NCBI GenBank assembly: GCA_021648145.1
Contig: JAKITI010000002.1
Coordinates: 135,888-199,887, forward strand
DNA: 64,000 nucleotides
Source of the DNA: Gammaproteobacteria bacterium
Lineage (GTDB): Bacteria > Pseudomonadota > Gammaproteobacteria > JAADGQ01
Direction: 5' to 3'
The position numbers were made by a program, and so were the translations under genes. This document shows, piece after piece, positions 3,001 to 36,878 of this stretch (position 1 is its first letter; every line of letters starts with the position of its first letter). Below the pieces are notes generated by a model, which worked only from the letters and a program-made list of their open reading frames with translations, did no database searches and was not told the DNA's origin.

Positions 3001-6000
3001 TGATTATCAAGCGGCCTTGCGCGCGGTTCAATACCAGAATATCAACACAGCAAACCCCGATACTGGAGCACGGACAATTCGCTATGCCCTAGGCAGCTCC
3101 TTGTCATTTGCGGAGAATGGTCATTTTTACGAATTTGTGACCGCCTCGGGCATCTCCTGGACAGCAGCTAAGGATGCGGCAGCGGCCAGAACCTTATTTG
3201 GTTTGCAAGGGTATTTAACAACTGTGACTTCAGCAAATGAGAATGCTTTTATTGCTTCTAAATTGGCTGGACAAGGCTGGATGGGAGCGAGTGATGCAGC
3301 AGTTGAAGGTGATTGGCGCTGGGTCACTGGCCCTGAGACAGGCACGGCATTTTGGAGTGGTCTTGGCAATGGCAGTTCAGTTGGCAGTGAATATGAGAAT
3401 TGGGGTGGGGTCGAACCTAACAATGCGGGTGGTGAAGATTATGCCCATTTTTTAAGTGGGGCTACCTGGAATGATTACCCTCATCAACTGGGGAATATTT
3501 CTGGCTACGTTGTTGAATATGGTGGTATGGCAGGTGATCCGGCACTGCAAATCACGGGCAATAAAACCGTTAATGTAACGGCTCAAAATGATGCGCCTGA
3601 AATTACCAGCGATGGCGGAGGTGTAACGGCTGCACTGAATGCGCTGGAGAACCAAACCGCAGTGACAACGTTGACGAGTACGGATGCTGAAAATCACACG
3701 GTGACTTACAGCCTGACGGGCGGGGCGGATCAGGCGAGTTTTAGTCTCGTTAATGGTGTACTGTCTTTTCTGACTTCCTCTGATTTTGAAGCGCCTACCG
3801 ACAGCGATGTCAACAATAGCTATGTTGTTGAAGTGACGGCGACTGATAATGGCTCCGGAGCATTGACTGACACACAAACGCTGACTGTTAGCGTGACGAA
3901 TGTTAACGAATTTCCTATTGCGGGTGCGGTGACGGCGAATAACGTGAGCCAAAATGATAAGGGGAATACTTCGTACACCTTTACCGTGGCTTATTCGGAC
4001 GTGGACGGTAATTTCGACAGTGCGACAGTTGATACGGCTGATGTCACGGTCAGTGGCGGAGCCTCGGTCTCTGGTGCGAGCTGGGGTGGTAATGGTTCTA
4101 CTGGCATAGCCACCTACACTGTAACGCCGCCAGGGGGGAGCTGGGATGATTCGGATAATGGCACTTACACTATTGCGATTCTTGCTAACCAAGTGACAGA
4201 TACAAATACGGGTTTTGTCGCGGCTAACGCCAGTGCCGCCAGTTTTACGGTATTGATGGATTCAACTGGCCCCACGGTGACAGCGGTGACTTTACCTAAC
4301 AGTGCCATGAAGGTGGGCGATGTGGTTGTGGTGAGTATCACTGCCAGCGAAGCGGGATCAACTTTGTTGTCTGGACTAGTGAATGGTGTTGCCGTAACAG
4401 GTTTTATGGATAACGGTGGCGGAAGCTATAGCGCGACTTACACCATTTTAGATGGCCACAGTGATCGTGCGGCGGGTGATGCGATTCCGGTTTCCTTCCA
4501 ACTGCAAGACAGTGCAGGCAACGTCGGTAATACCTACACCAATGCCATTGTGCAAACTGCTGATGCGATTGACGCTAATAATCCCAACGGTGCAACAGGG
4601 GCGTTAGCCGTGAATGAAAACGCCAGTAATGGCACAACGGTGGGCACTGTTTTAGCCACAGGGGCAAGTATCTACAGCTTGGTGGATGATGCTGGCGGTC
4701 GTTTTGCCATCCATGCCAGCACAGGAGTGGTGACTGTACTTGATGGTAGCTTGTTGGATTACGAAGCGAGTGTCAGTCATAACCTTACGGTGCGTGCTGT
4801 TGATGCTGCAAGCAATGCGATAGATACCGTGTTAACGGTGATGGTGAACCCCGTTAATGAAGCGCCATTAGTGGCGGGCCTTAATGGTGATAACGTGCGC
4901 TTTAATGTCGGTGGAAGTGCTGTGAATCTGGATGATGATCTTGATGCCACACTGACGATGGTGGACTCCATTGACATGGATGGCGGCAACGTGACGGTGG
5001 CTATTGTCGCTAATGCTCAAACGGCTGAAGATGTGCTGCAAGTGGGCGCGGTAGGCAATATTTCCCTCACCAATAGTGATGTTTTTCACAGCGATGGCCT
5101 GATAATTGCGACCGTAGCGGGCGGGACGAATGGTGAAAACTTAGTGTTGACACTTAATGCCAATGCCAGCTTTGATCGTGTTCGAGATCTTGTGTCGGCG
5201 TTGCAGTATGCGGGTTCGGATGACTTAAGTGTTAATACCGCAACACGCACCGTGCGTATTACCTTGGATGATGGTGATGGTGAAAGCTCAACCACGCTTA
5301 ATCAAGAGGTCAGTGTAGTGGTCGTGCGAGCGCCGATTATTGACCTTGATGGTGATGATGGCAGCGGCAATAGCAGCGGTGGTTTCAATGCTAGTTTTAC
5401 TGAAGGTGGCGGTGTTGTGGCCTTGGCAGACAGTGATGATTCAGTGGCCGAAGCGAACGATACGGTGATCACGGATGATGGCAACTTTAAATCTCTGAGC
5501 GTGGTATTGGACAACCGCCCCGATGGCAATGCTGAAGGGCTGAGTTCAAGTTATGGTACGGGTGTGCAGGAGGTTAACGGTGAATCGGTGACGATTTCTG
5601 CCTACGACAGCGCGACGGGTGAGTTGTTGATGACTGTGGACGATAACGCTGCCACGGCGGAGACGATGGAGTTGTTGATCGAATCGCTGCGCTACGATAG
5701 TAACTCTCAAACCCCTGATACCACAGAGCGTTTGATTCGTTTTATCGCCACTGATGATGACGATAATGTGGGGCTTGCTGTGACGGCTTCATTGGTTATC
5801 GTGGCCGTCAATGACGCACCGACAGGCAGTGTGAGCGTGACGGGTGCATTGATTGAAGGCCAGACCTTGGTATCTGATATCTCTACGGTCGTTGATTTAG
5901 ATGGTTTGCTTGCGTTTAGTTATCAATGGCAGCGTGATGGTGTTGATATTAGCGGTGCGACAGGCGCAAGTTATCTGCTGATGGCGGCTGATGTGGGTGG

Positions 6001-8530
6001 TGTGATGACACTTGTCGTGAGCTACACCGACGCGGGCGGTTACACAGAGTCGCTGAATAGTGTGGCCAGCGCTGTTGTTGATGGTGATTTAGATGGTGAC
6101 GGACTGGGTGATTTGACTGATACGGATATTGATGGTGATGGCTTGTCCAATGCCTATGAAGTAGCTAATGGCTTGGATAGTCGTGATAGCTCAGACCGTG
6201 ATGCAGATACCGATAATGATGGCGTGAGTAATTACGATGAGTTTGTTGCCGGTACGGATGCCAGTGCCGATGACAATCCACCCACGCTGTCTGCTCCCGC
6301 AGATATCACGTTAAATGCAATGGGTCTGTACACCGCTGTTGATTTAGGTGGTGCCTCAGCATCCGATGCGACCGACGGTGAATTGACGGCACGCATTACG
6401 CATCTGAATGGTGAGGCCGTATTGGTGACACCAACACACTTTAGCCCAGGGGCTCATGTGATTACTTGGACGGCGAGTGATGAGGCAGGCAACAGTGTGT
6501 CGGCCACACAAAATGTGAACGTGGTGCCATTGGTTGAGTTGAGTAAAAACCAAATCACTACAGAAGGCGCAACGGCTCGTTTCAAAGTGGTTCTCAACGG
6601 TTCAGCAGTGGACTATCCGGTCATCGTGCCCTATAGCGTCTCTGGCACAGCCGCGACAGATGGCTCTGATCATGACTTGGTGGATGGCAGTGTCACGATT
6701 AATAGCCCTGACTTAGAGGCGACGGTTTCATTTGCACTGGTTGATGATGGCGCAGGCGAAGGCATGGAGACCTTGCTTGTCACCATGGGTACACCGAGCA
6801 ATGCGGCGCTGGGATCGAAGGATAGCCATAGCGTTGATATCTACGAGGGCAATGTCGCACCTAGTGTTTTATTGACTGCAGAGCAGGGTTATGGTGTCAC
6901 CCGTCTGGTTGCACAAACTGGTGGTCTTGTGGTCGTGGCAGCAGCGGTGAGCGATGCCAATGTCGATGACCTGCATGGCTACGACTGGTCGGCGACAGAC
7001 AACGTTTTGGTGGATACTGATAGTGATGATGCAATGTTCAGTTTTGATCCGGCAAGTTTGGCCACGGGTGTCTACACACTCAAGGTTGTTGTCAACGATG
7101 GCCTGAATACTGTGGCGACACGACTGGAGTTGAAAGTTGTTGCCTCACTGCCTGCTCTGAGCGTTATCGATAGTGACGGTGATGGGGTTGACGATGCCAC
7201 GGAAGGTTATGGCGATACCGACGGTGATGGTGTGCCGAACTATCTTGATAACAGTAATATTGCTAAAAATGTTGCACAACAGCTTGTCGGAGACATCGAA
7301 ATGTTCTTGATGGAAACGGAATCTGACTTAGTGTTAAGCCTGGGGTCAATCGCCTTTAGTTCAGGGAGCAGCCAGATTGGGGTGAGTGACAGTGAGATTG
7401 AGCAATACGGTAACGATGGTGTGGGTGGTGTTGTTGATGAACACCATGACTTTAACAGCGGTTTGTTTGATTTCAATATTGAAGCGTTGCCTGTGCCGGG
7501 TCAAAGCGTCAGCGTGGTTGTAGTGCAATACGCGCCGATTCCGGCCAGTGCGGTTTATCGTAAGCTGATGCCTTCAGGCTGGCAGGACTTTGTTGAAAAT
7601 AGTCGTAACCATATCTCTTCTACGCAAGGCGTTGAGGGTTATTGCCCTCCACCAGGCGATAGCCGCTTTAGCCCAGGTTTGACTCAAGGGCACTGGTGTG
7701 TGCAATTGACGATTGAAGACGGTGGTCCGAACGATGCTGATGGTTTGGCTAATCAGACCGTCAAAGACCCTGGTGGTGTCGCAGTGCTGTCTTCAACGCC
7801 GATCACAGTGAAGGTGACGGGCAGTGGTGGTGGCAGCGTTTCACTGTGGACTTTGTTTCTGATGGGCTTGGTTGTGGTGGTGACTCGTCTGAGCGGTCGA
7901 GGTCGTCGCCTGGTACTGGCCATATGCTGCGCGGTAAGTGGCCTGGGTGTGGCTAACGCTCAGTCACCGCTTAAACCTGACTATATTGGGATTAGCTATT
8001 TATCTGCAACAAGCGATGAACGTGCCAGTGATTTTCAGTCAGATATTGATGCCCTGGGGCTGACGGCAAGCGTGACGCAAACGGATCTTTCACGTTCGGC
8101 TTGGTCGGGGCACATCGGATATCAAATCGAGAAGCCGCTTGCGTTGGAAATTGGCTATGTAGACTTGGGGAAGAGTAGCACCTCTCTCAACGGTCTGGCA
8201 GCCGATGTTGATCACTTTATAACGAGTGTCGAGGCAGTTTATCCCGTCACGGGTTCCGGGTTTACTTTTAATTTTGTAGGCCGTATCGCGCTGAGTAATA
8301 AAGTTGATGCCTGGGCTAACTTCGGCGTTTTTCTCTGGCAAGCAGAATACGATTTAAGCAGTGAAACGGTCTCGAAAACCTTCAAAGAGCGTGGCTTTAA
8401 TAATACGCTCGGCTTTGGTTTGGAAATGGATGTGGTTGCCCAAGTTCCAATTAGACTTGGTTGGACGATGTATCGCTTGGGCGGCGTTGACGTGAGTGCG
8501 TGGACGCTCGGGGCAGGGTTTCGGTTTTAG
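1..8530 (+). CDS. giant multidomain surface adhesin, 5' end outside window (in-window translation 2840 aa; frame continues from nt 2)
   Basis: Uninterrupted ORF to 8530. The window opens inside a C-type lectin domain (GWMGANDASVENDWRWVTGP...NDYP) that recurs almost intact around nt 3280-3560. In between: three near-identical 120-aa cadherin/Big-like repeats, a LamG/ConA-like module (LWFKTTSTGG...QWHRVV), cadherin repeats (AQNDAPEIT...VTNVNEFP), TSP3 Ca-binding repeats (DGDLDGDGLGDLTDTDIDGDGLSN...DTDNDGVSNYDE), a HYR-like and a Calx-beta-like module, a C-terminal IEDGGPNDADGLANQTVKDPGG motif, and a Gly-rich/TM/RGRR tail. Confidence 0.85.
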   Translation, partial: GWMGANDASVENDWRWVTGPEAGTAFWSGVANGSSVGGMYNNWSSGEPNQWGGDEDYAHFLNGGAWNDYPLSLSSISGYVVEYGGMAGDPTLQITGNKNVNVTAQNDAPSFSAGATLAAVNEDTLSPVGATVTALLNGNFNDVDSSSNLSGIAVAADTSVSGVQGDWEYSTDSGSNWFDMGSVSTASALLLNNSTLLRFKPFSNYSGTPGSLTVFAVDESGSTTYTSSATRQAFDTTSDDTASQIAASGVAIGTSVTAVNDAPILTAFSAVIDSTNEDTEVELTLAELQAQGDETDSEDGTVSRFVIKSVSTGSLKIGTSAGTATTFAATSNDTIDASNNAYWTPVSNANGSLNAFAAVVKDSSNAESISAVQALIMVTATNDTPTLTVFSAAIDSTNEDTEVELTLAELQAQGDEADSEDGTVSRFVIKSVSTGSLKIGASAGTAMPFAATSNDTIDASNNAYWTPANDANGSLSAFTVAAEDSSNTESISAVQALIMVTAVNDIPTLTAFSSVIDSSVGGAEVELTLAEFQAQGDEADIEDGTISRFVIKAVSSGSLKIGTSPGTASVFATSSNDTVNATNNAYWTPANNASGEVNAFTVVAQDSDSAESISAIQARVSVSSLPLVVYDFEDNVNDASGNGNHGVLQDTITYDSAGHSGKALSLSGSGYVKLPDDLLRNNQDFTVSLWFKTTSTGGILGYQNKVVGATATYWVPIISINTLGKLQAELWIGSSMLITSTNAVNDGQWHRVVMTADTTNNILSVYLDGVAIGSATGTIQHLDMSFNQLGLNDARGRVGIDLPNTETNYFTGLLDEFTFYSNALSAVEVAKTSQSISFPAIADQLLSQATLNLAATASSALGVTYTSTTVSVCTVAASTVTLLSTGTCTIQANQAGDTTYSSAAQITRSFDVVDNFPPVLTMSGGNTVFVEDGVAVAIDPSLTIVEPSAGAISGATVAITAGYVSTEDQLVYSAVAGAVISGSFNSTTGILTLTGSATPDDYQAALRAVQYQNINTANPDTGARTIRYALGSSLSFAENGHFYEFVTASGISWTAAKDAAAARTLFGLQGYLTTVTSANENAFIASKLAGQGWMGASDAAVEGDWRWVTGPETGTAFWSGLGNGSSVGSEYENWGGVEPNNAGGEDYAHFLSGATWNDYPHQLGNISGYVVEYGGMAGDPALQITGNKTVNVTAQNDAPEITSDGGGVTAALNALENQTAVTTLTSTDAENHTVTYSLTGGADQASFSLVNGVLSFLTSSDFEAPTDSDVNNSYVVEVTATDNGSGALTDTQTLTVSVTNVNEFPIAGAVTANNVSQNDKGNTSYTFTVAYSDVDGNFDSATVDTADVTVSGGASVSGASWGGNGSTGIATYTVTPPGGSWDDSDNGTYTIAILANQVTDTNTGFVAANASAASFTVLMDSTGPTVTAVTLPNSAMKVGDVVVVSITASEAGSTLLSGLVNGVAVTGFMDNGGGSYSATYTILDGHSDRAAGDAIPVSFQLQDSAGNVGNTYTNAIVQTADAIDANNPNGATGALAVNENASNGTTVGTVLATGASIYSLVDDAGGRFAIHASTGVVTVLDGSLLDYEASVSHNLTVRAVDAASNAIDTVLTVMVNPVNEAPLVAGLNGDNVRFNVGGSAVNLDDDLDATLTMVDSIDMDGGNVTVAIVANAQTAEDVLQVGAVGNISLTNSDVFHSDGLIIATVAGGTNGENLVLTLNANASFDRVRDLVSALQYAGSDDLSVNTATRTVRITLDDGDGESSTTLNQEVSVVVVRAPIIDLDGDDGSGNSSGGFNASFTEGGGVVALADSDDSVAEANDTVITDDGNFKSLSVVLDNRPDGNAEGLSSSYGTGVQEVNGESVTISAYDSATGELLMTVDDNAATAETMELLIESLRYDSNSQTPDTTERLIRFIATDDDDNVGLAVTASLVIVAVNDAPTGSVSVTGALIEGQTLVSDISTVVDLDGLLAFSYQWQRDGVDISGATGASYLLMAADVGGVMTLVVSYTDAGGYTESLNSVASAVVDGDLDGDGLGDLTDTDIDGDGLSNAYEVANGLDSRDSSDRDADTDNDGVSNYDEFVAGTDASADDNPPTLSAPADITLNAMGLYTAVDLGGASASDATDGELTARITHLNGEAVLVTPTHFSPGAHVITWTASDEAGNSVSATQNVNVVPLVELSKNQITTEGATARFKVVLNGSAVDYPVIVPYSVSGTAATDGSDHDLVDGSVTINSPDLEATVSFALVDDGAGEGMETLLVTMGTPSNAALGSKDSHSVDIYEGNVAPSVLLTAEQGYGVTRLVAQTGGLVVVAAAVSDANVDDLHGYDWSATDNVLVDTDSDDAMFSFDPASLATGVYTLKVVVNDGLNTVATRLELKVVASLPALSVIDSDGDGVDDATEGYGDTDGDGVPNYLDNSNIAKNVAQQLVGDIEMFLMETESDLVLSLGSIAFSSGSSQIGVSDSEIEQYGNDGVGGVVDEHHDFNSGLFDFNIEALPVPGQSVSVVVVQYAPIPASAVYRKLMPSGWQDFVENSRNHISSTQGVEGYCPPPGDSRFSPGLTQGHWCVQLTIEDGGPNDADGLANQTVKDPGGVAVLSSTPITVKVTGSGGGSVSLWTLFLMGLVVVVTRLSGRGRRLVLAICCAVSGLGVANAQSPLKPDYIGISYLSATSDERASDFQSDIDALGLTASVTQTDLSRSAWSGHIGYQIEKPLALEIGYVDLGKSSTSLNGLAADVDHFITSVEAVYPVTGSGFTFNFVGRIALSNKVDAWANFGVFLWQAEYDLSSETVSKTFKERGFNNTLGFGLEMDVVAQVPIRLGWTMYRLGGVDVSAWTLGAGFRF
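781..1860 (+). repeat. three tandem 360-bp (120-aa) near-identical intragenic repeats inside the adhesin gene
   Basis: The protein block AVNDAPxLTxFSAxIDSTNEDTEVELTLAELQAQGDExDSEDGTVSRFVIKSVSTGSLKIG...SAVQALIMVTA occurs three times. The repeated DNA also generates three paralogous antisense ORFs (673-1002, 1024-1368, 1390-1752). Confidence 0.85.
7826..7909 (+). other. GlyGly-CTERM / PEP-CTERM-like C-terminal sorting signal (Gly-rich, hydrophobic helix, RGRR cluster) inside the adhesin ORF
   Basis: ...TGSGGGSVSLWTLFLMGLVVVVTRLSGRGRR. The tripartite organisation matches rhombosortase/exosortase-type anchors, which normally end the protein. Here no stop codon follows. Confidence 0.5.
7862..8530 (+). 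other. signal peptide plus 8-strand OmpA-like outer-membrane beta-barrel in the adhesin frame (C-terminal fusion or nested gene)
   Basis: In-frame ATG at 7862 and GTG at 7874/7877/7880. (M)TRLSGRGRR-LVLAICCAVSGLGVANA|QSP has n-region, h-region and AXA cleavage site. The next ~185 aa are alternating amphipathic strands (YIGISY, HIGYQI, LEIGYVDLG, FTFNFVGRIAL, FGVFLWQAEY, LGFGLEMDV, IRLGWTMYRL) ending ...WTLGAGFRF, i.e. a terminal aromatic as in OMPs. Confidence 0.4.
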
Positions 8531-25940: not shown

Positions 25941-28550
25941 ATGAAAACCAGTGCAGAGCTACGTACAGCATTTCTGAATTTTTTCAATAAACATGGCCAT
26001 GAAATTGTGCCCAGTGCCCCATTGGTTCCTGGCAATGATGCAACTTTGTTGTTTACTAATGCTGGAATGGTGCAGTTCAAAGAGATATTTTTAGGCCAGG
26101 AGTCATCAAGCTATAAACGAGCAACAACATCTCAACGTTGCGTTCGTGCGGGTGGCAAACATAATGACCTGGAAAATGTAGGTTATACAGCACGCCATCA
26201 TACCTTTTTTGAGATGTTGGGTAACTTTAGCTTTGGTGATTATTTTAAGCATGAAGCCATTCAATATGCGTGGCAATTTTTAACTGAAGAACTCAAAATT
26301 CCTGCTGAAAAGTTATGGGTCACGGTTTTTGATGAAGATGATGAAGCTGCAGATATCTGGTTAAAAGAGATCGGTGTTGATCCGCAGCGTCTGACACGTA
26401 TTGGCGCAAAAGATAACTTTTGGTCGATGGGTGATACCGGACCATGCGGCCCTTGCTCAGAAATATTTTATGATCATGGCTCTACTGTTGCGGGTGGCCC
26501 ACCCGGCTCGTCTGAAGAGGATGGCGACCGCTTTGTAGAGATCTGGAATCTGGTTTTCATGCAATATGATCGTGCGCAGGATGGAACGCTGACTCCACTG
26601 CCTAAACCTTCGGTGGATACAGGGATGGGTCTGGAGCGGCTGGCTGCGGTCATGCAGGAAGTTCACAGTAATTATGAAACGGATCTTTTTCAATATTTGA
26701 TTCGTGTTGTTGCAAAAATGGCAGGCACAGATAATTTGCAGCAAAGTTCACTTCGAGTGGTTGCCGACCATATCCGTGCTTGCTCTTTCCTGGTTGTTGA
26801 CGGCGTGATTCCATCCAATGAAGGTCGCGGTTATGTGCTCAGGCGTATTATTCGTCGTGCGGCAAGGCATGGTCATCAACTGGGGATTAATGGCCTTTTT
26901 TTTCACCAATTGGTTCGCTCTGTTGTGGATGTTATGGGCGATGCTTATCCTGAACTGGTTAAAGCACAAGCACAGGTTGAACGTGTTTTAAAAATGGAAG
27001 AGGAGCGCTTTGCTGAAACATTGGAGCAGGGTCTGAAACATCTGGAAAGTGATATTGCTTCACTCGGTGATAAAAAAGTCATTTCTGGAGAGAGTGTTTT
27101 CCGCCTCTATGATACTTACGGTTTTCCCGTCGATCTAACCGCAGACTTTGCGCGTGAACGTGGTTTGACGATTGATATGGATGCTTTCGACCAGGCCATG
27201 ACAGCACAACGTGAACGTGCGCGCGCAGGCGGACACTTCGGAGTGGACTATTCGCACCGTATTAAGGTCGATGTTGCCACTGAATTTACGGGTTATGACC
27301 GCTTAGAAGATGAATCAGAGGTTGTTGCATTATACCAAAATGGTGAACTTGTTGAACAACTTAATACGGGTGAATCAGGCGATATTATCTTGAAAAACAC
27401 TCCCTTCTATGGCGAGTCTGGAGGGCAAGCGGGTGAGTCAGGGCAGCTGATTGGTGAACATGTAGTTTTTGACGTAAAAGATACGCAAAAACAAGGAGCC
27501 CATACCTATATTCATCATGGCATAGCGTGTGATGGCGTGTTGCGAAAAGGGGATCCAATAAAAGCGGTTGTTAATTCGGAGCAACGTCAGGCTTCCGCAC
27601 TTAACCATACTGCAACTCACTTGTTACATGCAGCGCTTCGTCAAGTATTGGGTGAGCATGTCGCACAAAAAGGATCATTGGTTGATTCAAATCGTTTACG
27701 CTTTGATTTTTCTCATTTTGAAGCCGTCACAAATGAGCAGTTGCAAACCATTGAAACACTGGTTAATGCGCAGGTTCGTAACAATGATGCGGTGGTGACG
27801 GATGAAATGTCACCGGATGAAGCTGTAGCCAAAGGTGCTATGGCACTCTTTGGCGAAAAATATGGTAATTTAGTGCGTGTGGTTGGCGTGGGTGGCTTTT
27901 CTATTGAGCTATGTGGCGGTATTCATGTCAAACGTGCTGGAGAAATCGGGTTATTTAAAATCACTATGGAAACTGGAATTGCAGCGGGTGTGCGACGGAT
28001 TGAAGCAGTGACAGGAGTGACCGCATTAAACTGGATTCAGAAAAATGATTTTTGTTTGACGGTTGTTTCTGAAATGCTCAAAACAGGTCGAGATGAAGTA
28101 AAAGATAAAGTCAAACAGCTTCAAGAGCGTGTACGCAAGTTTGAAAAAGAGATTGAACAACTCAAAGGCAAGCTGGCCAGTAGTCAGGGTGATGAGTTAT
28201 CTAACCTTGCTGAAGATGTGCAAGGTATAAAAGTATTGAGTGTTTGTCTGGACGGTGCTGATGTGAAAACTTTACGTTCAACGCTTGATCAATTAAAAAA
28301 TAAGCTCGGGTCTTCAGTGATTGTTCTTGCTACAAAAACAGACTCTAAAGTGAGCATTGTTGCTGGCGTGAGCAAAGATAATACGGATCGTTTAAAAGCA
28401 GGTGAGGTCGTTAATATGGTGGCGCAGCAGGTGGGTGGCAAAGGCGGTGGCCGACCTGATATGGCACAAGCAGGAGGTAATAACCCTGCGGCATTGGATG
28501 GTGCATTGGCCTCTGTGCTTCCATGGGTGAAAGAGCGCCTTTCATCATGA
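25941..28550 (+). CDS. alaS: alanine--tRNA ligase
   Basis: [27 protein letters not shown]; editing-domain HxxxH...CGGTH; C-Ala domain. Confidence 0.97.
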
Positions 28551-29755
28551 GTTTGATTGTACAAAAATATGGCGGAACTTCTTTAGGAAGTGCTGAGCGA
28601 ATTGCTCATGTGGCTAAAAAAGTCGCTGCGGAGCGTCAAAAAGGTCATCGTGTCGTGGTTGTTGTGTCTGCCATGAGTGGTGAAACAAATCGCTTGATGG
28701 CTTTGGCTCACTCTGTTAATCCAGAGCCAAACGTTCGTGAGCTGGATACACTGCTCTCAACAGGTGAGCAAGTGACCATCGCGCTGTTAAGTCTGGCATT
28801 GGAAAATATCGGTTGTCCCGCTAAGTCATACACAGGTGGTCAGGTCTGTATTCAAACAGACAGTCAGCATACCAAGGCGCGCATTCAAGATATTAATGTA
28901 TCAAAGATGCAGGATGATATCTCGGCAGGGCGAGTGGTTGTGGTCGCTGGCTTTCAAGGCGTAGATGAAAATGGCAACATTACAACACTGGGGCGTGGGG
29001 GGTCTGATACCACGGCTGTGGCTTTGGCTTATGCTTTAAAAGCAGACGAATGCCAGATTTATACAGATGTTGATGGTGTTTATACGACAGACCCTAGAGT
29101 GGTTCCCGAAGCACGTAAGTTGAATCAGCTCACTTATGAAGAGATGCTGGAAATGTCCAGTTTAGGTGCGAAGGTTCTACAAATACGTTCAGTTGAATTT
29201 GCCAGCAAATACAGTGTTCCGTTAAGGGTGCTCTCTTCGTTCGAAGAAGGTGAGGGGACTTTGATTACCAAAGAGGATAAAAGTGTGGAACAGGCATTAA
29301 TATCAGGTATTGCATTTAATCGAGATGAGGCTAAATTGACTATTCTGGGTGTGCCTGATCGGCCTGGCGTGGCTCACTATATTCTAGGCCCCGTTGCGAA
29401 AGCTGGCGTTGAAGTCGATATGATTGTCCAGAACATCGCAGAAGATACGACAACCGACTTTACTTTTACCGTACACAGAAATGATTACAAACGAGCTTTT
29501 GATGTCTTGAACTCGACTGCGAAAGAGCTGGGCGCAAGAGAAGTTAAAGGAGATGACAAAATTGTAAAAATTTCACTTGTGGGTGTCGGCATGCGTTCGC
29601 ATGCAGGCATTGCCAGCACGATGTTTGAAGCATTGGCTAACGATGGAATTAATATCCTAATGATTTCGACATCAGAAATTAAAATATCAGTCGTCGTTGA
29701 TGAAAAATATCTAGAGCTTGGGGTTCGAGCGTTACATTCAGCTTTCGATCTTTGA
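28547..29755 (+). CDS. lysC: aspartate kinase (alpha2-beta2 type, two ACT domains)
   Basis: [12 protein letters not shown]...[17 protein letters not shown] domains; ATGA overlap with the alaS stop. Confidence 0.93.
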
Positions 29756-30010
29756 ATCTTTCATTTAATATATTGACAAGCTCCTAGTAAAAAAGGTCAA
29801 AAATATTTATATTGAGCCGTTATAGTAGTTCTGTAGTTGTATGGAAAGTTTGTACAATCAAAGAATAATCGTAATGGCCTTCTTTTTTTGTGATCGGACT
29901 ACAGTTTTTTATATTTTGGCCGATATAAGGTGCAGCGGTCTAAGCTGACTCTTATTTTATTAGCTTATGGCGCTTTAACTATAAAGTTTTTTAGAGCAAG
30001 GAGAAAAAAT

Positions 30011-30256
30011 ATGCTTATTCTTACTCGACGCGTCGGTGAAACGTTGATGATTGGTGACGATGTTACCGTGACCGTTCTGGGTGTTAAAGGTAATCAGGTT
30101 CGCATTGGGGTTAATGCTCCAAAAGAGATCAGCGTGCATCGCGAAGAGATTTATGAACGCATTCAAAAAGAAAAGCAGCTAAAAGAAGGACAGCTAAAAG
30201 AAGGACAGCTAAAAGAAGGACAGCTAAAAGAAGGACAGCTAAAAGAAGAGGGGTAG
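30011..30256 (+). CDS. csrA: carbon storage regulator CsrA with C-terminal (QLKEG)n extension
   Basis: [52 protein letters not shown] is canonical CsrA. Followed by [37 protein letters not shown] before ATG 30011. Confidence 0.9.
30176..30250 (+). repeat. five tandem in-frame copies of a 15-nt unit (CAGCTAAAAGAAGGA) at the csrA 3' end
   Basis: Four perfect copies then one variant (…GAAGAG), directly visible in the sequence; encodes (QLKEG)5. Confidence 0.9.
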
Positions 30257-30396
30257 ACACATATTTTTAGGGTACGCTGAATAGTTATAAAAATTTATTA
30301 AAAATAATTTTGCGTACTCAAACTATATTAGGTATTCTGTCACCGCTTTTGATTCAGCGGCTCTGAATAGCTGATCAAAGTGATATTTTAACAAAC

Positions 30397-30489
30397 GGAG
30401 AGATGGCCGAGAGGCTGAAGGCGCTCCCCTGCTAAGGGAGTATGGGGTTTATAGCCTCATCGAGGGTTCGAATCCCTCTCTCTCCGCCA
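30397..30489 (+). tRNA. tRNA-Ser (anticodon GCT)
   Basis: 93 nt: GGAGAGA acceptor, anticodon loop CTGCTAA, long variable arm, GGTTCGAATCC, CCA encoded. Conserved position after csrA (the serV equivalent). Confidence 0.9.
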
Positions 30490-30518
30490 TAAGCGAGTTT
30501 AATAAAGTCTATAGATAT

Positions 30519-30554
30519 AAAAAAGCCACAATCCTTTGGAGTGTGGCTTTTTTT
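30519..30554 (+). terminator. rho-independent terminator after tRNA-Ser(GCT)
   Basis: AGCCACAatcctttggagTGTGGCTTTTTTT. Confidence 0.6.
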
Positions 30555-30838
30555 ATATCCAAGGGTTTCTTAATAAGCAACCAAGTAACAGTTGTTTACC
30601 CCTATATCTGGTGGCAACACATCAAATTTTAGCACCCTTTCCGGAAACATTGCCCACTTTGAACATATGCAGCATAGATAGCTATACTTGATTAACAATG
30701 CCTAGAGATTATCCCCCATTTGAAAAATATTTAAACTCGCTTGAAGAGGTTGCGGAAGCTGAGTTGCTAACGGAGCTTTATGTGCCAATAAATTAAAATT
30801 AGTTCCTTAGGAACTGTTGTTGGACAAGGCTTATTTGG

Positions 30839-31187: not shown

Positions 31188-32030
31188 ATGTTTATAATAG
31201 GATTGGGCAAGCTGGGGAAGTGTCTTGCCAAACAAGCCTTGGCTTCAGGTGTGCAGGTGTCGGCACTGGTGCGACATGTGAGCGAATGTATTGGTGTCAC
31301 AATGATACTAGGTGATCTCGATTACCCAGAAACGTTAGTCGGACTGCCCTTAAAAAATAGAGAGCTCTACTATTTCGCTCCTCCCCCTAATGGTGGTGTA
31401 TGTGATACACGAATGCGTCATTGGTTGGTGAGTCTGGTGTCTGATAATTTTCCTGAAAAAATTGTTTATATCAGCACGACGGGTGTATACGGAGATTGTC
31501 AGGGGCGGTGGGTGAATGAAGAAGTTTCTCCAAAGCCTGGTACAGATCGGAGCCGACGCCGTCTGGATGCAGAGAATATGCTGCGTCAATGGGGCGTGAA
31601 AAATAGAGTGCCAGTCGTTGTATTGCGTGTGTCGGGTATTTATGGCGTGAATCGTCTGCCCGTTGAGTCACTTCGTAAGGGTCGTCCTGTTGTACGTTCC
31701 GAAGAAGCACCTTTTTCCAACCGTATTCATGAAGATGACCTGCTTCAGGTTTGTCTGGTAGCAATGAAGTACGGGCGGACTGGAGCAATTTATAACGTTT
31801 CAGATGGCCAGCAAACAACGATGACAGATTATTTTTTTGCTGTTGCCGATGCATTGGGTCTACCTCGTCCACCTGAGGTGAGTCATTGTGATGCAGAGTC
31901 ACAATTTTCCCCGGCAATGCGCTCTTATCTGCAAGAATCACGGAGAATTGATAACCGAAAAATGATCCATGAATTAAAGATTATACTGCGTTATCCTGAC
32001 TTGGTTCATGGGTTAGCTTGTTTTGATTGA
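31188..32030 (+). CDS. NAD(P)-binding Rossmann-fold protein (atypical SDR / NAD-dependent epimerase-dehydratase family)
   Basis: N-terminal IIGLGKLG (GxGxxG). ISTTGVYGD resembles the epimerase motif; the canonical YxxxK is not obvious. Confidence 0.65.
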   Translation: MFIIGLGKLGKCLAKQALASGVQVSALVRHVSECIGVTMILGDLDYPETLVGLPLKNRELYYFAPPPNGGVCDTRMRHWLVSLVSDNFPEKIVYISTTGVYGDCQGRWVNEEVSPKPGTDRSRRRLDAENMLRQWGVKNRVPVVVLRVSGIYGVNRLPVESLRKGRPVVRSEEAPFSNRIHEDDLLQVCLVAMKYGRTGAIYNVSDGQQTTMTDYFFAVADALGLPRPPEVSHCDAESQFSPAMRSYLQESRRIDNRKMIHELKIILRYPDLVHGLACFD

Positions 32031-32150
32031 GCATGATCATGTGGCCTTACTCTCAAAAATAGCCTTTTACCAACTGAATTTATTGCAAAAAGTAAAAGCC
32101 TGGGTATATCCTTGTTCCTTTATATCAGAAGTGTTTTAAGTGAGAGTGTG

Positions 32151-33623
32151 ATGAAAAATAACGCTATATTATCATTGTTATTTATTCCTGCCATTTTAGT
32201 GTTAAGCGCTTGTGGCAGTGAAGATCAGGCAGTAGAAGGTCAGAGCAAACCTGTTGCCGTGCAGTATCTGCCAAAGAAAAACAGTATTGTAATCCCTAAA
32301 TCACTGTTAGGTTATCAGGAAGAATCCTCAGAGAGAACATTTCGTGCCATTGATAGTGGTGGTGAAGCAGATTCCGCTTTTGCCAAGGTCAATAATCGTG
32401 TGACCGAAGCGGAAATAATTCGTTTGGGCCATCAAGTGCCACTTTTAATGCTGGATGCAGTCTGGTATGAAATAGAGTCACAGTGCAAGAGTGTCGTAGC
32501 TGAAACAGCCTGTACGATACCTCAAGGGACGATTGCATTGCAGTTAACGGATGACATTATTGCGGCCGAAAAAGTGGCTGTAGAAAAAATAGATACGATT
32601 AATAACAAACAACAGAGTGGGATGTTTGGAGTAAATGAAACTGATGAAATCATCCAGCTACCGACCACTCCAGGTGAAAGTATTGAGCTAGGAACGATCG
32701 TCTACACTGCTTTTTCAGCGGAGAGTGAGTTTCAGTATGAAGTCTCGCTGGATCTCTCTGAAATGGAAAAAATGAGTGGGTTGGTCAGTGATGATGCGAC
32801 AATTTTTTTGCTTAAATGGGCCGCCAATAAACGCAGTGTCGTCTCTTCATATGCTTTTGAAAATAGTGATACAGACTTCATTTATACCTATAGCTATCTT
32901 GATGATGGCAATGATGAGTTGGTGGAAATTAAATATAGTAACTCTGATAATGTGACTGAAAAAATATCGAATACAGAGACAGAAACTATTACATTGAAGG
33001 CTCTTGATGACTCAAACAATACGGCGTTGATCGGGTTTGAAGGACGATATAGTAGTGCACGGGGTCTACAATCTTTTTCTGCTGTGGGTCAGGCAAATAA
33101 TGATTCGGGCTCTTTACAGGCTGATTTTTCTTCTGACTATGGTTCTGAAGGGGAAGCCGAATTAATCAGTTACAGTAAGAGGGAGACTTTTGCTAATAAT
33201 AAGGGTGTTATTAATAGCAAGGTATGCGAAGCAAACTGTGCTAATGAGAGTGCATGGAAATCTGCCAAAGGAGGCGATTCAACAAATTCATCGGGTAATA
33301 CAAATACGATCAATGGTGATAAAAATGAGGTCACTATTACTGAAACAGTGACTGAATCACCTCTTATAAATATTTTTGTTTCAGGGTTAGATGACGGCTC
33401 TTATATCATCGCATCCGATGGGTTTGATGGAAGTATTGAAAATAAGCTGGGGTACGGTTGGGTGGCGGAAGGTATTGCTGAATTCTTATATTGGGGCAGT
33501 GAAGCCGAAATTGAGAGCGCCAAGATTTATACAACTGAGCTTGTTATTGATGGGGCGGAGTATCGCTTTACTTATGTTGAGGTCAGTACGGCTCAAATCG
33601 CCATGGCTGAAGGTGCTCTTTAG
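32151..33623 (+). CDS. large lipoprotein of unknown function
   Basis: MKNNAILSLLFIPAILVLSAC has a lipobox (LSAC). About 490 aa, rich in S/T/D/N/E, with no domain I recognise. Confidence 0.6.
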   Translation: MKNNAILSLLFIPAILVLSACGSEDQAVEGQSKPVAVQYLPKKNSIVIPKSLLGYQEESSERTFRAIDSGGEADSAFAKVNNRVTEAEIIRLGHQVPLLMLDAVWYEIESQCKSVVAETACTIPQGTIALQLTDDIIAAEKVAVEKIDTINNKQQSGMFGVNETDEIIQLPTTPGESIELGTIVYTAFSAESEFQYEVSLDLSEMEKMSGLVSDDATIFLLKWAANKRSVVSSYAFENSDTDFIYTYSYLDDGNDELVEIKYSNSDNVTEKISNTETETITLKALDDSNNTALIGFEGRYSSARGLQSFSAVGQANNDSGSLQADFSSDYGSEGEAELISYSKRETFANNKGVINSKVCEANCANESAWKSAKGGDSTNSSGNTNTINGDKNEVTITETVTESPLINIFVSGLDDGSYIIASDGFDGSIENKLGYGWVAEGIAEFLYWGSEAEIESAKIYTTELVIDGAEYRFTYVEVSTAQIAMAEGAL

Positions 33624-33649: not shown

Positions 33650-35209
33650 TTATCGGTTGTAATTTTTTACCATCTGTTTGATATGTTTGGGGGTGTTATT
33701 ATCGAGCTGCTCCCAATTGAAACGCCAGAGCCAGTTTCCTTCACAAGTACCGGGGGTGTTCATTCTGTGCTCTTCTTTGAGCATTAATATATCCTGCATA
33801 GGAATGATTGCCAGTTTTGCAACGGATGCAAATGCACAGCGAATAATAGGCCAGGGCATGACTTCTTGTGGAAACCCTAAATATTCCTGAATATGTTGTT
33901 GTTGATCAAAGGATAGCGCGTTATACCACCCACAGGTTGTGTTGTTGTCATGTGTCCCACTGTAAACTGCGGAGTCGGTTTCATGGTTGTGTGGGAGGTA
34001 AGGGTTATTGGCATCGCTATCGAAAGCAAACTGGAGTATCTTCATCCCGGGTAACCTGAACTCTTTTCGCAGAGCATCGACTTCATCAGTGATTATGCCA
34101 AGGTCTTCCGCAATAAAAGGCAGTGCTCCGAAATGCTCCTGTAATTTTTTGAAAAGTGCTTGCCCTGGTGCTTTAACCCAGTGGCCATTGATCGCAGTCT
34201 CTTCATTCGCTGGAATTGACCAGTATGCTTCGAACCCCCTGAAGTGATCAATACGCATGATGTCATAGAGTTTAAGCTGGGTTTCGATGCGCTCAACCCA
34301 CCAGGAAAACCCGCTTTTTTCCATAAAACTCCAGCGGTAATGCGGGTTGCCCCAGCGCTGGCCTGTTTCTGAAAAATAATCAGGAGGTACGCCTGCAACA
34401 ATATCAGGTTGACCTTCAGGGGTTAGTTGGAAGCACTCTCGGTGCACCCATACATCGGCACTGTCATGTGAAACAAAGATAGGGATATCGCCAAATAATA
34501 AAATCCCTTTTTTGTTGGCATAGTGCTTTAAGCTTTTCCATTGGTTGAAAAAGAGAAATTGCTCAAATTGAGTTTGAGCAATTTCTTCATGCAACTCATG
34601 GCGCAGCTCAAGCAGTGCATTTGGGTTACGGTCACGTAGTGGTGTGGGCCACTCAATCCATGAAAGACCGTGATGTTTTTGTTTTATGACCCAAAAGAGT
34701 GCGTAATCTACCAGCCAGTGTTTTTCATCGTTAATAAAGTCAGTCAGCATGCTATGAGAAGCTGCATCGGCCTTTTTCTGGAAACAGTGAAAGGCTTTTT
34801 TAAGAAGTTGTTGACGACGTTCTTCTGCAGAGGTATCACTCGCTAGTTGTTGCTCGACTTCGTTGGAAGAGAGCCAGCCGGCATCAATGAGCGCATCAAG
34901 ACTAATCAGTTGAGTGTTGCCTGCATGGGCGGAAAAACAGTTGTAAGGTGAGTGATCTTTGTGTGTTGGACCTAAGGGCAATGTTTGCCATATGCTCATA
35001 CCACTGTCCACTAAAAAATCAATAAAGTGGTAAGCTTCTGAACCCAGATCACCATTTTCCCAGCGGTTCGGTAAAGAGGTGATATGGAGTAATATACCAC
35101 CCCGACGCTTTTCTAGTGGGTCGTGGTGAGTGGTTATTTTAGTGGAAGTGGCATGCAAGTTAATTTTGCTCCTTTCCTGGGCGCATGGCGCCTCCGTGCA
35201 GTGGGTCAC
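33650..35209 (-). CDS. malQ: 4-alpha-glucanotransferase (amylomaltase, GH77)
   Basis: GILLHITSLP...GDLGSEAYHFIDFL...WQTLPLGP; GH77 catalytic region. The first ~16 codons overlap the GH57 gene, so the true start may lie downstream. Confidence 0.85.
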   Translation of the reverse strand: MTHCTEAPCAQERSKINLHATSTKITTHHDPLEKRRGGILLHITSLPNRWENGDLGSEAYHFIDFLVDSGMSIWQTLPLGPTHKDHSPYNCFSAHAGNTQLISLDALIDAGWLSSNEVEQQLASDTSAEERRQQLLKKAFHCFQKKADAASHSMLTDFINDEKHWLVDYALFWVIKQKHHGLSWIEWPTPLRDRNPNALLELRHELHEEIAQTQFEQFLFFNQWKSLKHYANKKGILLFGDIPIFVSHDSADVWVHRECFQLTPEGQPDIVAGVPPDYFSETGQRWGNPHYRWSFMEKSGFSWWVERIETQLKLYDIMRIDHFRGFEAYWSIPANEETAINGHWVKAPGQALFKKLQEHFGALPFIAEDLGIITDEVDALRKEFRLPGMKILQFAFDSDANNPYLPHNHETDSAVYSGTHDNNTTCGWYNALSFDQQQHIQEYLGFPQEVMPWPIIRCAFASVAKLAIIPMQDILMLKEEHRMNTPGTCEGNWLWRFNWEQLDNNTPKHIKQMVKNYNR

Positions 35210-36878
35210 CGCCGCCGTGGCTGATAATTTTTGATAACGATTCGGGTGGCTCTAAATTCAGCATTTGATAGAGGTTCGCCAGATGCATTCGGAAGAGCCG
35301 TTCAAAATCACTGACAGCATCTTGCGAATTATAATCACCGAACCACCAGAACCAGTCTGAGCCTTCACAGATGGCCAGCTGTTTATCAACGGCTTCACGG
35401 TTTTCATCTGCAATTTCGTTGGCAGCGACTTTGGCATCATAAGCATGCTTGGCTTCAATGAGCAGATCCCAGCCCGCATTTTTGTCGGTATCACCGATCC
35501 AGGTTGAAAATGTGCCATAAACCCAACTTCCAGAAACCATTCCTGAGAGTTTTCCTGCTTTAGGTTTTGCATCAAGGCATTCAGAAAAAGTAGTGAGTTC
35601 TATGTTTGGGTGTTCAGACAAACGCTTGTAAAGTGCGCTGAGAAAATGGTAGCCATTATCTGGGTAGTGCTCCCAGGCATTTTCACCATCAAGAATAATA
35701 GAGACAACGCTGTCATGAGCAGATTGACAGGTGACATTAATATTTTCCAGGTGATGAATCAGATCACCGACCGCATCATCGGCATGCCAGTTGGAGTAGG
35801 TGAAGCCAATGAGATCAGAGAGTCCGTCATCTCGAAAAAAACAACGGATATTGCCCGTACCTTTAATGTGATAGGGGTGATAAAGTTCGTGTCCATCATG
35901 AGTGTCTGAGTCAGAGATTCCATGATGCGTCAGGCTGTTATGAAAAACGGACTCTCCTGTTGCGGCCCAGTCAAAGCCGTATTCATTAAGCAGGTGCAAC
36001 GTATCACTACTCACTCCGCCTTCTGAAGGCCAGCAGCCTCGCGGTGTTTTTCCGAAAAATCGTTGAAAAGTATCAATTCCTTTTTCCAGGTGCCACTTCA
36101 ATCGCTCTTGTCCACCAGGGTAAACAGGTGCTTTGGGCAGTGATGCGTCAGGCATCGCATCTTTGGTGCACTGTAAATCTTGCATGAGCGGCATGATTGG
36201 GTGTGCATAAGGTGTCATGGAGAGCTCAATCTGGTTTTTTGCAGAGAGCACACGATAGCGCTCAATGATGCTTGAGAGTTGCTCGCTGATAACTCCCAGG
36301 AGTTTGCGGCGGTCACTCAATGTATAGTTTTGGCCTTTTTCACAGAGCTGCTGTATGCACTTACTTTTTCTGCGAACGGTTTCACCCATCCAGGCAAGAT
36401 GATACCAAACCAGAAGATCCGTCAGGAACTGATCGTCCATATAGATTTTAAGGTCATCATTTTGATGGTACCAGTTCGCCATATCGACCAAACGTCGATA
36501 GTGTGGGAAACGGTTAATTAAGCGCTCTTCATTTGCTCTGAGGCAGGCCTCAATGAGTACCCATCGTTCTTCACTTTTATTGGGAAGTGCTGGCATATCC
36601 AGAGCGGCAAGTAACGGGTCTTTTATAGATCCGCTCCCATGAAGAAAGCTTTTGACCTGAGTGGCGTAATCCTCAATTTGCTCCAGTAGTATCGGTGCAA
36701 AGTTAATGACGGCCTTGGCTTTGGGTGTCTCTTCTAGAATGGATGCCATATCAACATAATCTTTAATGGCATGCAGGTAAGTCCACGGCAATTGGTATAT
36801 ACCATCCATGAGTTCGCGGTATTCAGGCTGGTGCATATGCCAGCACAGAACAACTTTCAATTGGTTTTTATCGGACAT
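35160..36878 (-). CDS. glycoside hydrolase family 57 protein (alpha-amylase / GH57 branching-enzyme-like)
   Basis: [14 protein letters not shown] is the GH57 N-terminal signature; typical GH57 length. Confidence 0.8.

Follow-up and report, generated by a model that had tools for sequence, protein, structure and literature searches.

CsrA, among the most conserved global regulators of bacteria, is usually treated as a fixed module of 61 residues. In the 64-kb stretch of DNA analysed here (the window), a gene of this family ends in a perfect tandem array of 15-nt units, which raises the question of whether such an array is genuine, how it came to lie inside this gene and whether the length of the tail that it encodes is of any consequence to the protein.

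The csrA open reading frame was read from an ATG at 30011 to a TAG at 30254-30256 on the forward strand (81 codons). The automatic list of open reading frames begins this frame at an upstream GTG (29930); the true start is ATG 30011, because a Shine-Dalgarno sequence precedes it and because the same start is found in the identical database protein and in all relatives. The gene is composed as follows.

29998..30003, forward strand: Shine-Dalgarno sequence AAGGAG, 7 nt 5' of the csrA ATG (seen in the sequence; invariant in the alignment with relatives L001-L005)
30011..30256, forward strand: csrA coding sequence, 81 codons plus TAG (sequence, Pfam CsrA, NCBIfam equivalogs, identical nr protein)
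30011..30175, forward strand: conserved CsrA core, residues 1-55, comprising the beta strands and the start of the C-terminal helix (RsmA alignment, 40-sequence alignment)

A reading of the DNA that preceded this work and relied on the letters alone (the sequence-only reading) had taken the first 55 residues for canonical CsrA, and this was borne out by profiles and structures alike. The Pfam family PF02599 matches residues 1-53 of the product with 92.5 bits (cut-off 27), the NCBIfam equivalogs NF002469 and TIGR00202 score 120.7 bits (cut-off 73) and 104.1 bits (cut-off 70.1), respectively, and 51 of the 55 core residues (~93%) are identical to those of Pseudomonas aeruginosa RsmA (1VPZ/7YR6) in a structure-sequence alignment where 1VPZ was the best match and Escherichia coli CsrA (1Y00) the next-best solved structure. 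Positions L2, L4, R6, R7, V42, R44, E45, E46 and I47 are invariant in the 40-sequence CsrA alignment, and all the RNA-binding residues that we checked (L2, L4, R6, R7, V42, R44, E46 and I47, E. coli numbering) are present. The identical 81-aa protein (P0001) is found in NCBI nr as MCF6235134.1, 'MAG: carbon storage regulator CsrA [Gammaproteobacteria bacterium]'. Judged by its sequence, the window gene is a canonical CsrA/RsmA with an intact RNA-binding core.

Its surroundings are equally conventional, with the following features next to csrA.

25941..28550, forward strand: alaS, alanyl-tRNA synthetase, upstream of csrA (open reading frame; the syntenic genes of relatives carry tRNA-synt_2c, tRNA_SAD and DHHA1)
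28523..29755, forward strand: lysC, aspartokinase, upstream of csrA (Pfam AA_kinase and ACT domains; same order in L001, L002 and L013-L015)
29888..29915, forward strand: promoter-like site (TTGTGA, 16 nt, TATATT) in the csrA leader (consensus scan; the block hardly varies among relatives of 83-95% overall identity; putative function)
30397..30489, forward strand: tRNA-Ser(GCT), directly downstream of csrA (ARAGORN, Rfam tRNA; 100% identical in L001)

The gene order recA-recX-alaS-lysC-csrA-tRNA-Ser(GCT) is common to the window and to every relative retrieved, and the window csrA is therefore the chromosomal housekeeping copy, not a plasmid or island paralogue. A scan for intrinsic terminators between csrA and tRNA-Ser found none, and a search with Rfam found no RNA family in or around the repeat and nothing of the CsrB/Rsm sRNA type within the window. 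The csrA leader and promoter (29885-29965, forward strand, e.g. GGCCGATATAAGGTGCAGCGGTCT), which had no Rfam match, are almost invariant across relatives that are 83-86% identical overall, and more conserved than the neighbouring intergenic DNA; this segment may be a regulatory leader, as far as conservation can indicate.

Synteny with every relative stops just past tRNA-Ser(GCT) (from 30490-30600 onward in the window; L013:5487-7245; L014:5526 onward), where L013 and L015 have Cas1 and an IS1595-type Zn-ribbon gene, L014 directly a KTI12/AAA_33 gene, and the window an epimerase-like ORF (31188-32030) followed by a 503-aa ORF (32112-33623) with no Pfam match. The contigs of several relatives end at this tRNA gene, and the ensemble suggests that its 3' side is a variable region or an integration hotspot. 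About 3.4 kb downstream of csrA, the reverse strand encodes a 4-alpha-glucanotransferase (GH77) and a GH57 enzyme (33650-36878), i.e. glycogen/alpha-glucan genes whose nearness to a 'carbon storage regulator' is probably a coincidence. Elsewhere in the window, a 2840-aa ORF (8-8530, forward strand) with Laminin_G_3, Cadherin and C-terminal OmpA-like domains begins at the window edge, is probably larger, and contains a 366-nt (122-aa) tandem repeat of 2.8 copies at 81% identity (770-1781); it is probably a large repetitive adhesin. A SAH riboswitch (Rfam RF01057, 62.3 bits; 60556-60629, reverse strand) lies directly upstream of the gene for S-adenosylhomocysteine hydrolase (59225-60535, reverse strand) in a textbook layout.

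The array itself was detected in two ways. TRF delineated a period-15 array at 30176-30248 with 4.9 copies, 100% matches and no indels (consensus CAGCTAAAAGAAGGA), and a scan at lag 15 gave 58 exact matches in a row, a run of which about 1e-28 are expected by chance in the window (per-base match probability 0.255; GC 44.5%). Within the 64-kb window, no other exact short-period array of comparable length was found. The tail is divided as follows.

30176..30235, forward strand: four perfect 15-nt units CAGCTAAAAGAAGGA, each encoding QLKEG (TRF, lag-15 run; absent from sister species)
30236..30253, forward strand: terminal unit of the ancestral type, CAGCTAAAAGAAGAG-GGG; it encodes QLKEEG, the native C-terminus, which every allele retains (same end in L001)

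The fifth unit (30236-30250, CAGCTAAAAGAAGAG) differs in its last two bases from the window unit and is followed by GGG TAG; its other 13 nt continue the perfect array after the four full units. Of the (QLKEG)5 tail described in the sequence-only reading, the 15-nt in-frame array is thus real, but the peptide is (QLKEG)4-QLKEEG, with four complete units. As the unit is 15 nt long and located at the 3' end of the ORF, neither the reading frame nor the stop codon changes with copy number. The csrA tail array is a real, non-random, in-frame coding VNTR.

A search of 5.8 billion proteins returned three repeat-bearing sequences of the QLKEG type, each on one contig, which together with their closest matches form the following series.

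81 aa, five units including the terminal one: P0001 (the window)
71 aa, three units including the terminal one: P0002, contig L001 (GCA_054043885.1)
66 aa, two units including the terminal one: P0003 (compared as protein)
61 aa, a single unit: P0007, P0008 and P0011

Outside repeat number, the 81-, 71- and 66-aa proteins are otherwise identical, and the next matches after them are 61-aa proteins ending in QLKEEG, QQKEEG or QSKEEG. Several expectations raised from the DNA alone thereby proved sound: that a canonical CsrA would end about 6 residues past residue 55 (the nearest relatives have 61 aa), that units would be gained or lost in frame (a 61/66/71/81-aa series with identical or near-identical cores), and that a comparison among relatives would uncover repeat-number polymorphism (2, 3 and 5 units, with a single unit in outgroups).

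The contig of the 71-aa allele, L001, shares 95.0% identity with the window over 5.6 kb, and the two are collinear on either side of the repeat; by segment, identity is 95.2% in alaS, 97.0% in lysC, 99.4% (nucleotide) in the csrA core and 100% in tRNA-Ser. Single-unit genomes (L002-L007, L013-L015) show 75-86% identity over aligned stretches, and 83-86% on long contigs. Because the single-unit genomes are 83-86% identical to the window, as against 95.0% for the genome with the 71-aa allele, the 61-aa single-unit csrA is the ancestral form in this group, and the expansion a recent event confined to a young sub-lineage. Exact-pattern scans of genome and metagenome contigs with ATTCAAAAAGARAAGCAGCTAAAAGAAG matched only single-unit contigs that were already known. 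With RecA as a guide, named matches reach only ~84-85% identity (a Thiohalophilus sp. MAG, Kaarinaea lacus). One relative at 93% identity carries the label hydrothermal vent metagenome. The best-scoring RecA match to the window, a 459-aa protein (P0121), is encoded on L016 (ENA ERZ27236914 k141_1436031), where htpG, a Tn3-family transposase fragment, a resolvase and a HepT/MNT toxin-antitoxin pair come after recX in place of alaS-lysC-csrA; this contig is either a rearranged relative or chimeric.

The composition of the arrays bears on their origin. Both full units of L001 are CAGCTAAAAGAAGGG, with a GGG end, and all four of the window are CAGCTAAAAGAAGGA, with a GGA end; the terminal CAGCTAAAAGAAGAG-GGG-TAG is the same in both. 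The terminal 15-mer is separated by a single A>G change (1 nt) from the L001 unit and by 2 nt from the window unit. The sole synonymous difference between window and L001 occurs in every full unit of each array, and each array is internally perfect; therefore, since the lineages split, either each array must have expanded on its own or contraction and re-expansion must have homogenised its units. Such a pattern is the signature of slipped-strand mispairing, which we infer to be the mechanism. On the simplest account, the process would have begun with a duplication of the native-tail 15-mer CAGCTAAAAGAAGAG (QLKEE), continued with one A>G substitution (E>G) in the duplicated unit and ended with slipped-strand expansion of the resulting unit. 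Further gain or loss of units at replication would lengthen or shorten the tail in steps of 5 residues, with the frame always intact.

What the added residues do to the protein can be approached through structure prediction. An AlphaFold2 monomer model built on the 40-sequence alignment has strands at residues 11-14, 18-26 and 29-35 and a helix at 44-69, with a mean pLDDT of 67.5 and a pTM of 0.44; a model of the monomer is by its nature silent on the domain-swapped dimer. Confidence drops along the tail, from a mean pLDDT of 68 in residues 51-60 to 45 in 61-70 and less than 40 further on (residues 63-81 all lie below 50); according to the model, the C-terminal helix would continue, with low confidence, as far as about residue 69 and then give way to disorder. 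For the modulation of dimer interactions by a charged helical tail, which the sequence-only reading had considered, the model offers no more than this low-confidence extension of the helix. It is near charge-neutral (5 K, 6 E), with Gly at every fifth residue, Leu at a 5-residue period and no heptad pattern. No PDB match to the repeat tail was found, the Geobacillus CsrA chain 5DMB aligning to residues 2-62 only. The CsrA C-terminus has been described as unstructured and variable in length, with an extension that differs greatly among taxa (PMC7366521). The stretch after HREEIY ranges from 12 to 69 aa (mode 22) among the 120 best homologues and measures 33 aa in the window, so that the sequence-only reading has to be tempered on this point: a long CsrA tail is not unusual.

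Taken together, we assign a probability of about 0.75 to the reading that the locus holds a recent, slippage-driven in-frame VNTR in the tolerant, largely disordered tail of a canonical CsrA. Changes in length would be tolerated because the tail lies outside the RNA-binding surfaces and is predicted to form a short helix extension followed by disorder; tail-length variation would then be neutral or mildly modulatory (stability, solubility, steric reach) and not a switch. Near-neutrality is the probable state of affairs, against which two observations weigh. Several sister species share both the length of 61 aa and the final KEEG, which hints at some constraint on the tail. Moreover, transposon truncation of the C-terminal domain of Acinetobacter baylyi CsrA alters competence and growth (PMC12442408), and because of that phenotype it can be argued, by analogy, that gammaproteobacterial CsrA tails can matter. 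A modulatory role of the QLKEG tail is conceivable on the same analogy.

Tails of this kind are not restricted to the window's lineage. A clade with ~70% DNA identity to the window (L010:987-1244, L011:3001-3243, L012:685-927) includes L010, whose CsrA has 85 aa, and L011 and L012, whose CsrAs have 80 aa; at 97.8% DNA identity, the two forms differ by one exact 15-nt duplication, GAAGGGCAGGCCAAG, in the csrA tail, set in an older and partly decayed (EGQAK/E)n array. A search seeded with the protein of that clade revealed a large environmental family of 73-93-aa CsrAs (P0004, P0023, P0079, P0241-P0353) with a tail in three parts, namely a conserved RIKAEEGQ, a hypervariable, low-complexity acidic middle and a conserved QIGNTAEA-like tip, (D/E)Q(I/L/M)GNTAEA in consensus. 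The middle is made of (EGQ)n, (DQ)n, (EQ)n, (EEG)n or an 11-residue unit present three times; in several pairs the two members are exactly one unit apart, and many tails differ by a single EGQ, EQ or DQ. Two or more tandem copies with an identity of at least 80% are found in 58 of 233 CsrA tails, a sample biased by the fact that both queries bear repeats; the window array is the longest and cleanest among the 233. Unit-variable repeat tails have thus arisen independently in a second large CsrA clade.

This recurrence also bears on an adaptive alternative, according to which the number of units sets the activity, stability or partner binding of CsrA and acts as a heritable, reversible and graded tuning knob. 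Copy number does differ among very close relatives, the variable middle of the second clade is held between the conserved RIKAEEGQ and QIGNTAEA, and tails of RNA regulators can be functional, as in the A. baylyi CsrA already mentioned and in the Hfq of Acinetobacter, where fewer GGFGGQ repeats impair function and lower fitness (PMC11617691). Against it stand the rarity of the QLKEG type, with only three repeat-bearing sequences among the 5.8 billion proteins, each on one contig, and the placement of the tail, which lies at a distance from the RNA-binding residues and is modelled with low confidence; moreover, recurrence is also expected from mutation bias in a tolerant low-complexity region. 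We regard this alternative as unlikely. A broader version, for which the case is distinctly doubtful, would make the CsrA repeats a recurrent and selected 'length dial' in environmental Gammaproteobacteria; by analogy, it would consist of a conserved RNA-binding core, a linker built of repeats whose length can change, and a short conserved tip, which is KEEG in the window and QIGNTAEA in the second clade. Under the preferred reading, the tail reflects tolerated DNA slippage most likely, rather than a new regulatory device.

A further concern is that the repeat, or its copy number, was created or distorted by metagenome assembly. All the csrA repeat alleles come from MAG or metagenome assemblies. 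Perfect arrays of 75 nt exceed the k commonly used in de Bruijn graphs, and assemblers working with short k can collapse or miscount them; the five units of the window are such an assembly count and could be collapsed or mis-resolved. The arrays of 30 and 45 nt, on the other hand, should be short enough to be resolved unambiguously and hence reliable. In addition, the same repeat appears at the same place and in the same frame in three independent assemblies with 2, 3 and 5 units, the L001 array is fixed for a GGG variant of its own, something that no artefact would produce, and the flanks are collinear with relatives on both sides. That the repeat as such is an artefact is very improbable; an error in the exact count is likelier than that. 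As a practical warning, CsrA lengths taken from MAGs may be assembly-dependent.

The sequence-only reading had also drawn attention to AAGGA/GGA in the unit as CsrA-binding-like sites placed in the csrA mRNA itself, from which a cis-acting RNA element (autoregulation or sponge) could be imagined in the 3' part of the message. The tail region of the window does contain four A(N)GGA motifs, its RNA is rich in purines and for the most part unpaired, and GGA motifs are recognised by CsrA (PMC6546359). However, L001, the closest allele, has GGG in every full unit and hence no GGA in its tail as against four in the window, and the four window GGAs are copies of one synonymous codon choice (GGA accounts for 17 of 116 Gly codons in alaS and lysC). 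No hairpin presents a GGA, the array having a minimum free energy of -5.2 kcal/mol (z +0.37 against shuffles; z +1.14 with flanks), and the motifs, which occupy the 3' end of the ORF, are remote from the Shine-Dalgarno sequence where CsrA acts on translation. Because the L001 units end in GGG and the repeat RNA has no structure beyond that of shuffled controls, we rejected a selected cis-acting CsrA site in the repeat, whose probability is minimal, and the former claim is not supported.

The weakest candidate is an antisense ORF that would yield a hydrophobic membrane peptide.

30129..30260, reverse strand: antisense 43-aa ORF, (LLLAV)n, GTG start (ORF list)

Although uninterrupted and opened by a GTG, it is a mere reverse-complement reading of the repeat, lacks a Shine-Dalgarno in the 15 nt upstream, and shrinks or vanishes in relatives with one to three units, while the sense frame is the strongly conserved csrA. 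The consensus scan found no promoter-like site placed to drive it (the sole minus-strand site, 30087-30060, is downstream of the ORF). We discarded this ORF, which the repeat generates as a by-product; its expression is unlikely, and it has practically no chance of being a gene.

As it stands, the csrA repeat tail is a curiosity mostly explained by ordinary slippage. It nevertheless indicates that the tail of csrA can hold a mutable minisatellite polymorphic in copy number, and among the CsrAs of uncultured Gammaproteobacteria, variable-length tails built of repeats are common. Should the length of the tail influence activity or stability, the array would offer a simple heritable way to retune a whole regulon, and if the 'length dial' were true, lineages or subpopulations would be able to set the Csr regulon in graded, reversible steps through slippage. 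If tail length has no effect, the array is a clean natural example of a tolerated VNTR and a potential marker for strain typing.

A search of the literature on tandem repeats or slippage in CsrA found nothing relevant, and the locus is best situated by comparison with systems that share some of its traits. With canonical CsrA/RsmA (E. coli 1Y00, P. aeruginosa 1VPZ; 61 aa) it shares the near-identical core of residues 1-55, R44 and the alaS-(lysC)-csrA-tRNA-Ser neighbourhood; it differs by 20 additional residues, in the form of four extra QLKEG units before the native QLKEEG end. Extended CsrAs are known from Bacillus, Campylobacter and Geobacillus (5DMB), from Pseudomonas (RsmM, RsmH, RsmL), from S. 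meliloti (pMBA19a) and from Acinetobacter, and their extra sequence likewise lies past the conserved helix, in the region that varies across the CsrA family and can serve stability or protein binding (PMC7366521; PMC12442408). Their extensions, however, are unique sequences fixed within a lineage, whereas the window tail consists of perfect repeats whose number varies among near-identical genomes. In the CsrAs antagonised by FliW, the C-terminal extension is the FliW docking site, and fliW usually adjoins csrA in a flagellar operon; at the window locus, neither fliW nor flagellar genes lie beside csrA, its neighbours being lysC and tRNA-Ser, and no homology of the repeat tail to the FliW-binding C-terminus of Bacillus and Geobacillus was found (5DMB aligns with residues 2-62).

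Outside the family, a close parallel is the Hfq of Acinetobacter, which likewise joins the conserved oligomeric core of a global RNA-binding regulator to a disordered C-terminal domain of short repeats. It belongs to a different family, and its repeats are Gly/Phe-rich, in contrast to the K/E/Q/L/G unit of CsrA; they are conserved in the genus and their number affects function (PMC11617691). The QLKEG array, by contrast, expanded recently, occurs in three of the sequences found and is known here from sequence. The core-linker-tip layout of the 73-93-aa CsrA clade also resembles the tails of Hfq and SSB, whose disordered linker and tip are analogous to the layout proposed for a 'length dial'.

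At the DNA level, classical contingency loci switch genes on and off through frameshifts or promoter spacing; the csrA array cannot frameshift and, with its 15-nt unit at the 3' end of the ORF, does not behave as a phase-variable on/off locus. In-frame repeats are typical of surface proteins and not of cytoplasmic global regulators. The csrA array is akin to the bacterial coding VNTRs used as MLVA loci, with which it has in common a perfect head-to-tail arrangement, a unit that is a multiple of three, homogenised units and a copy number that differs between relatives.
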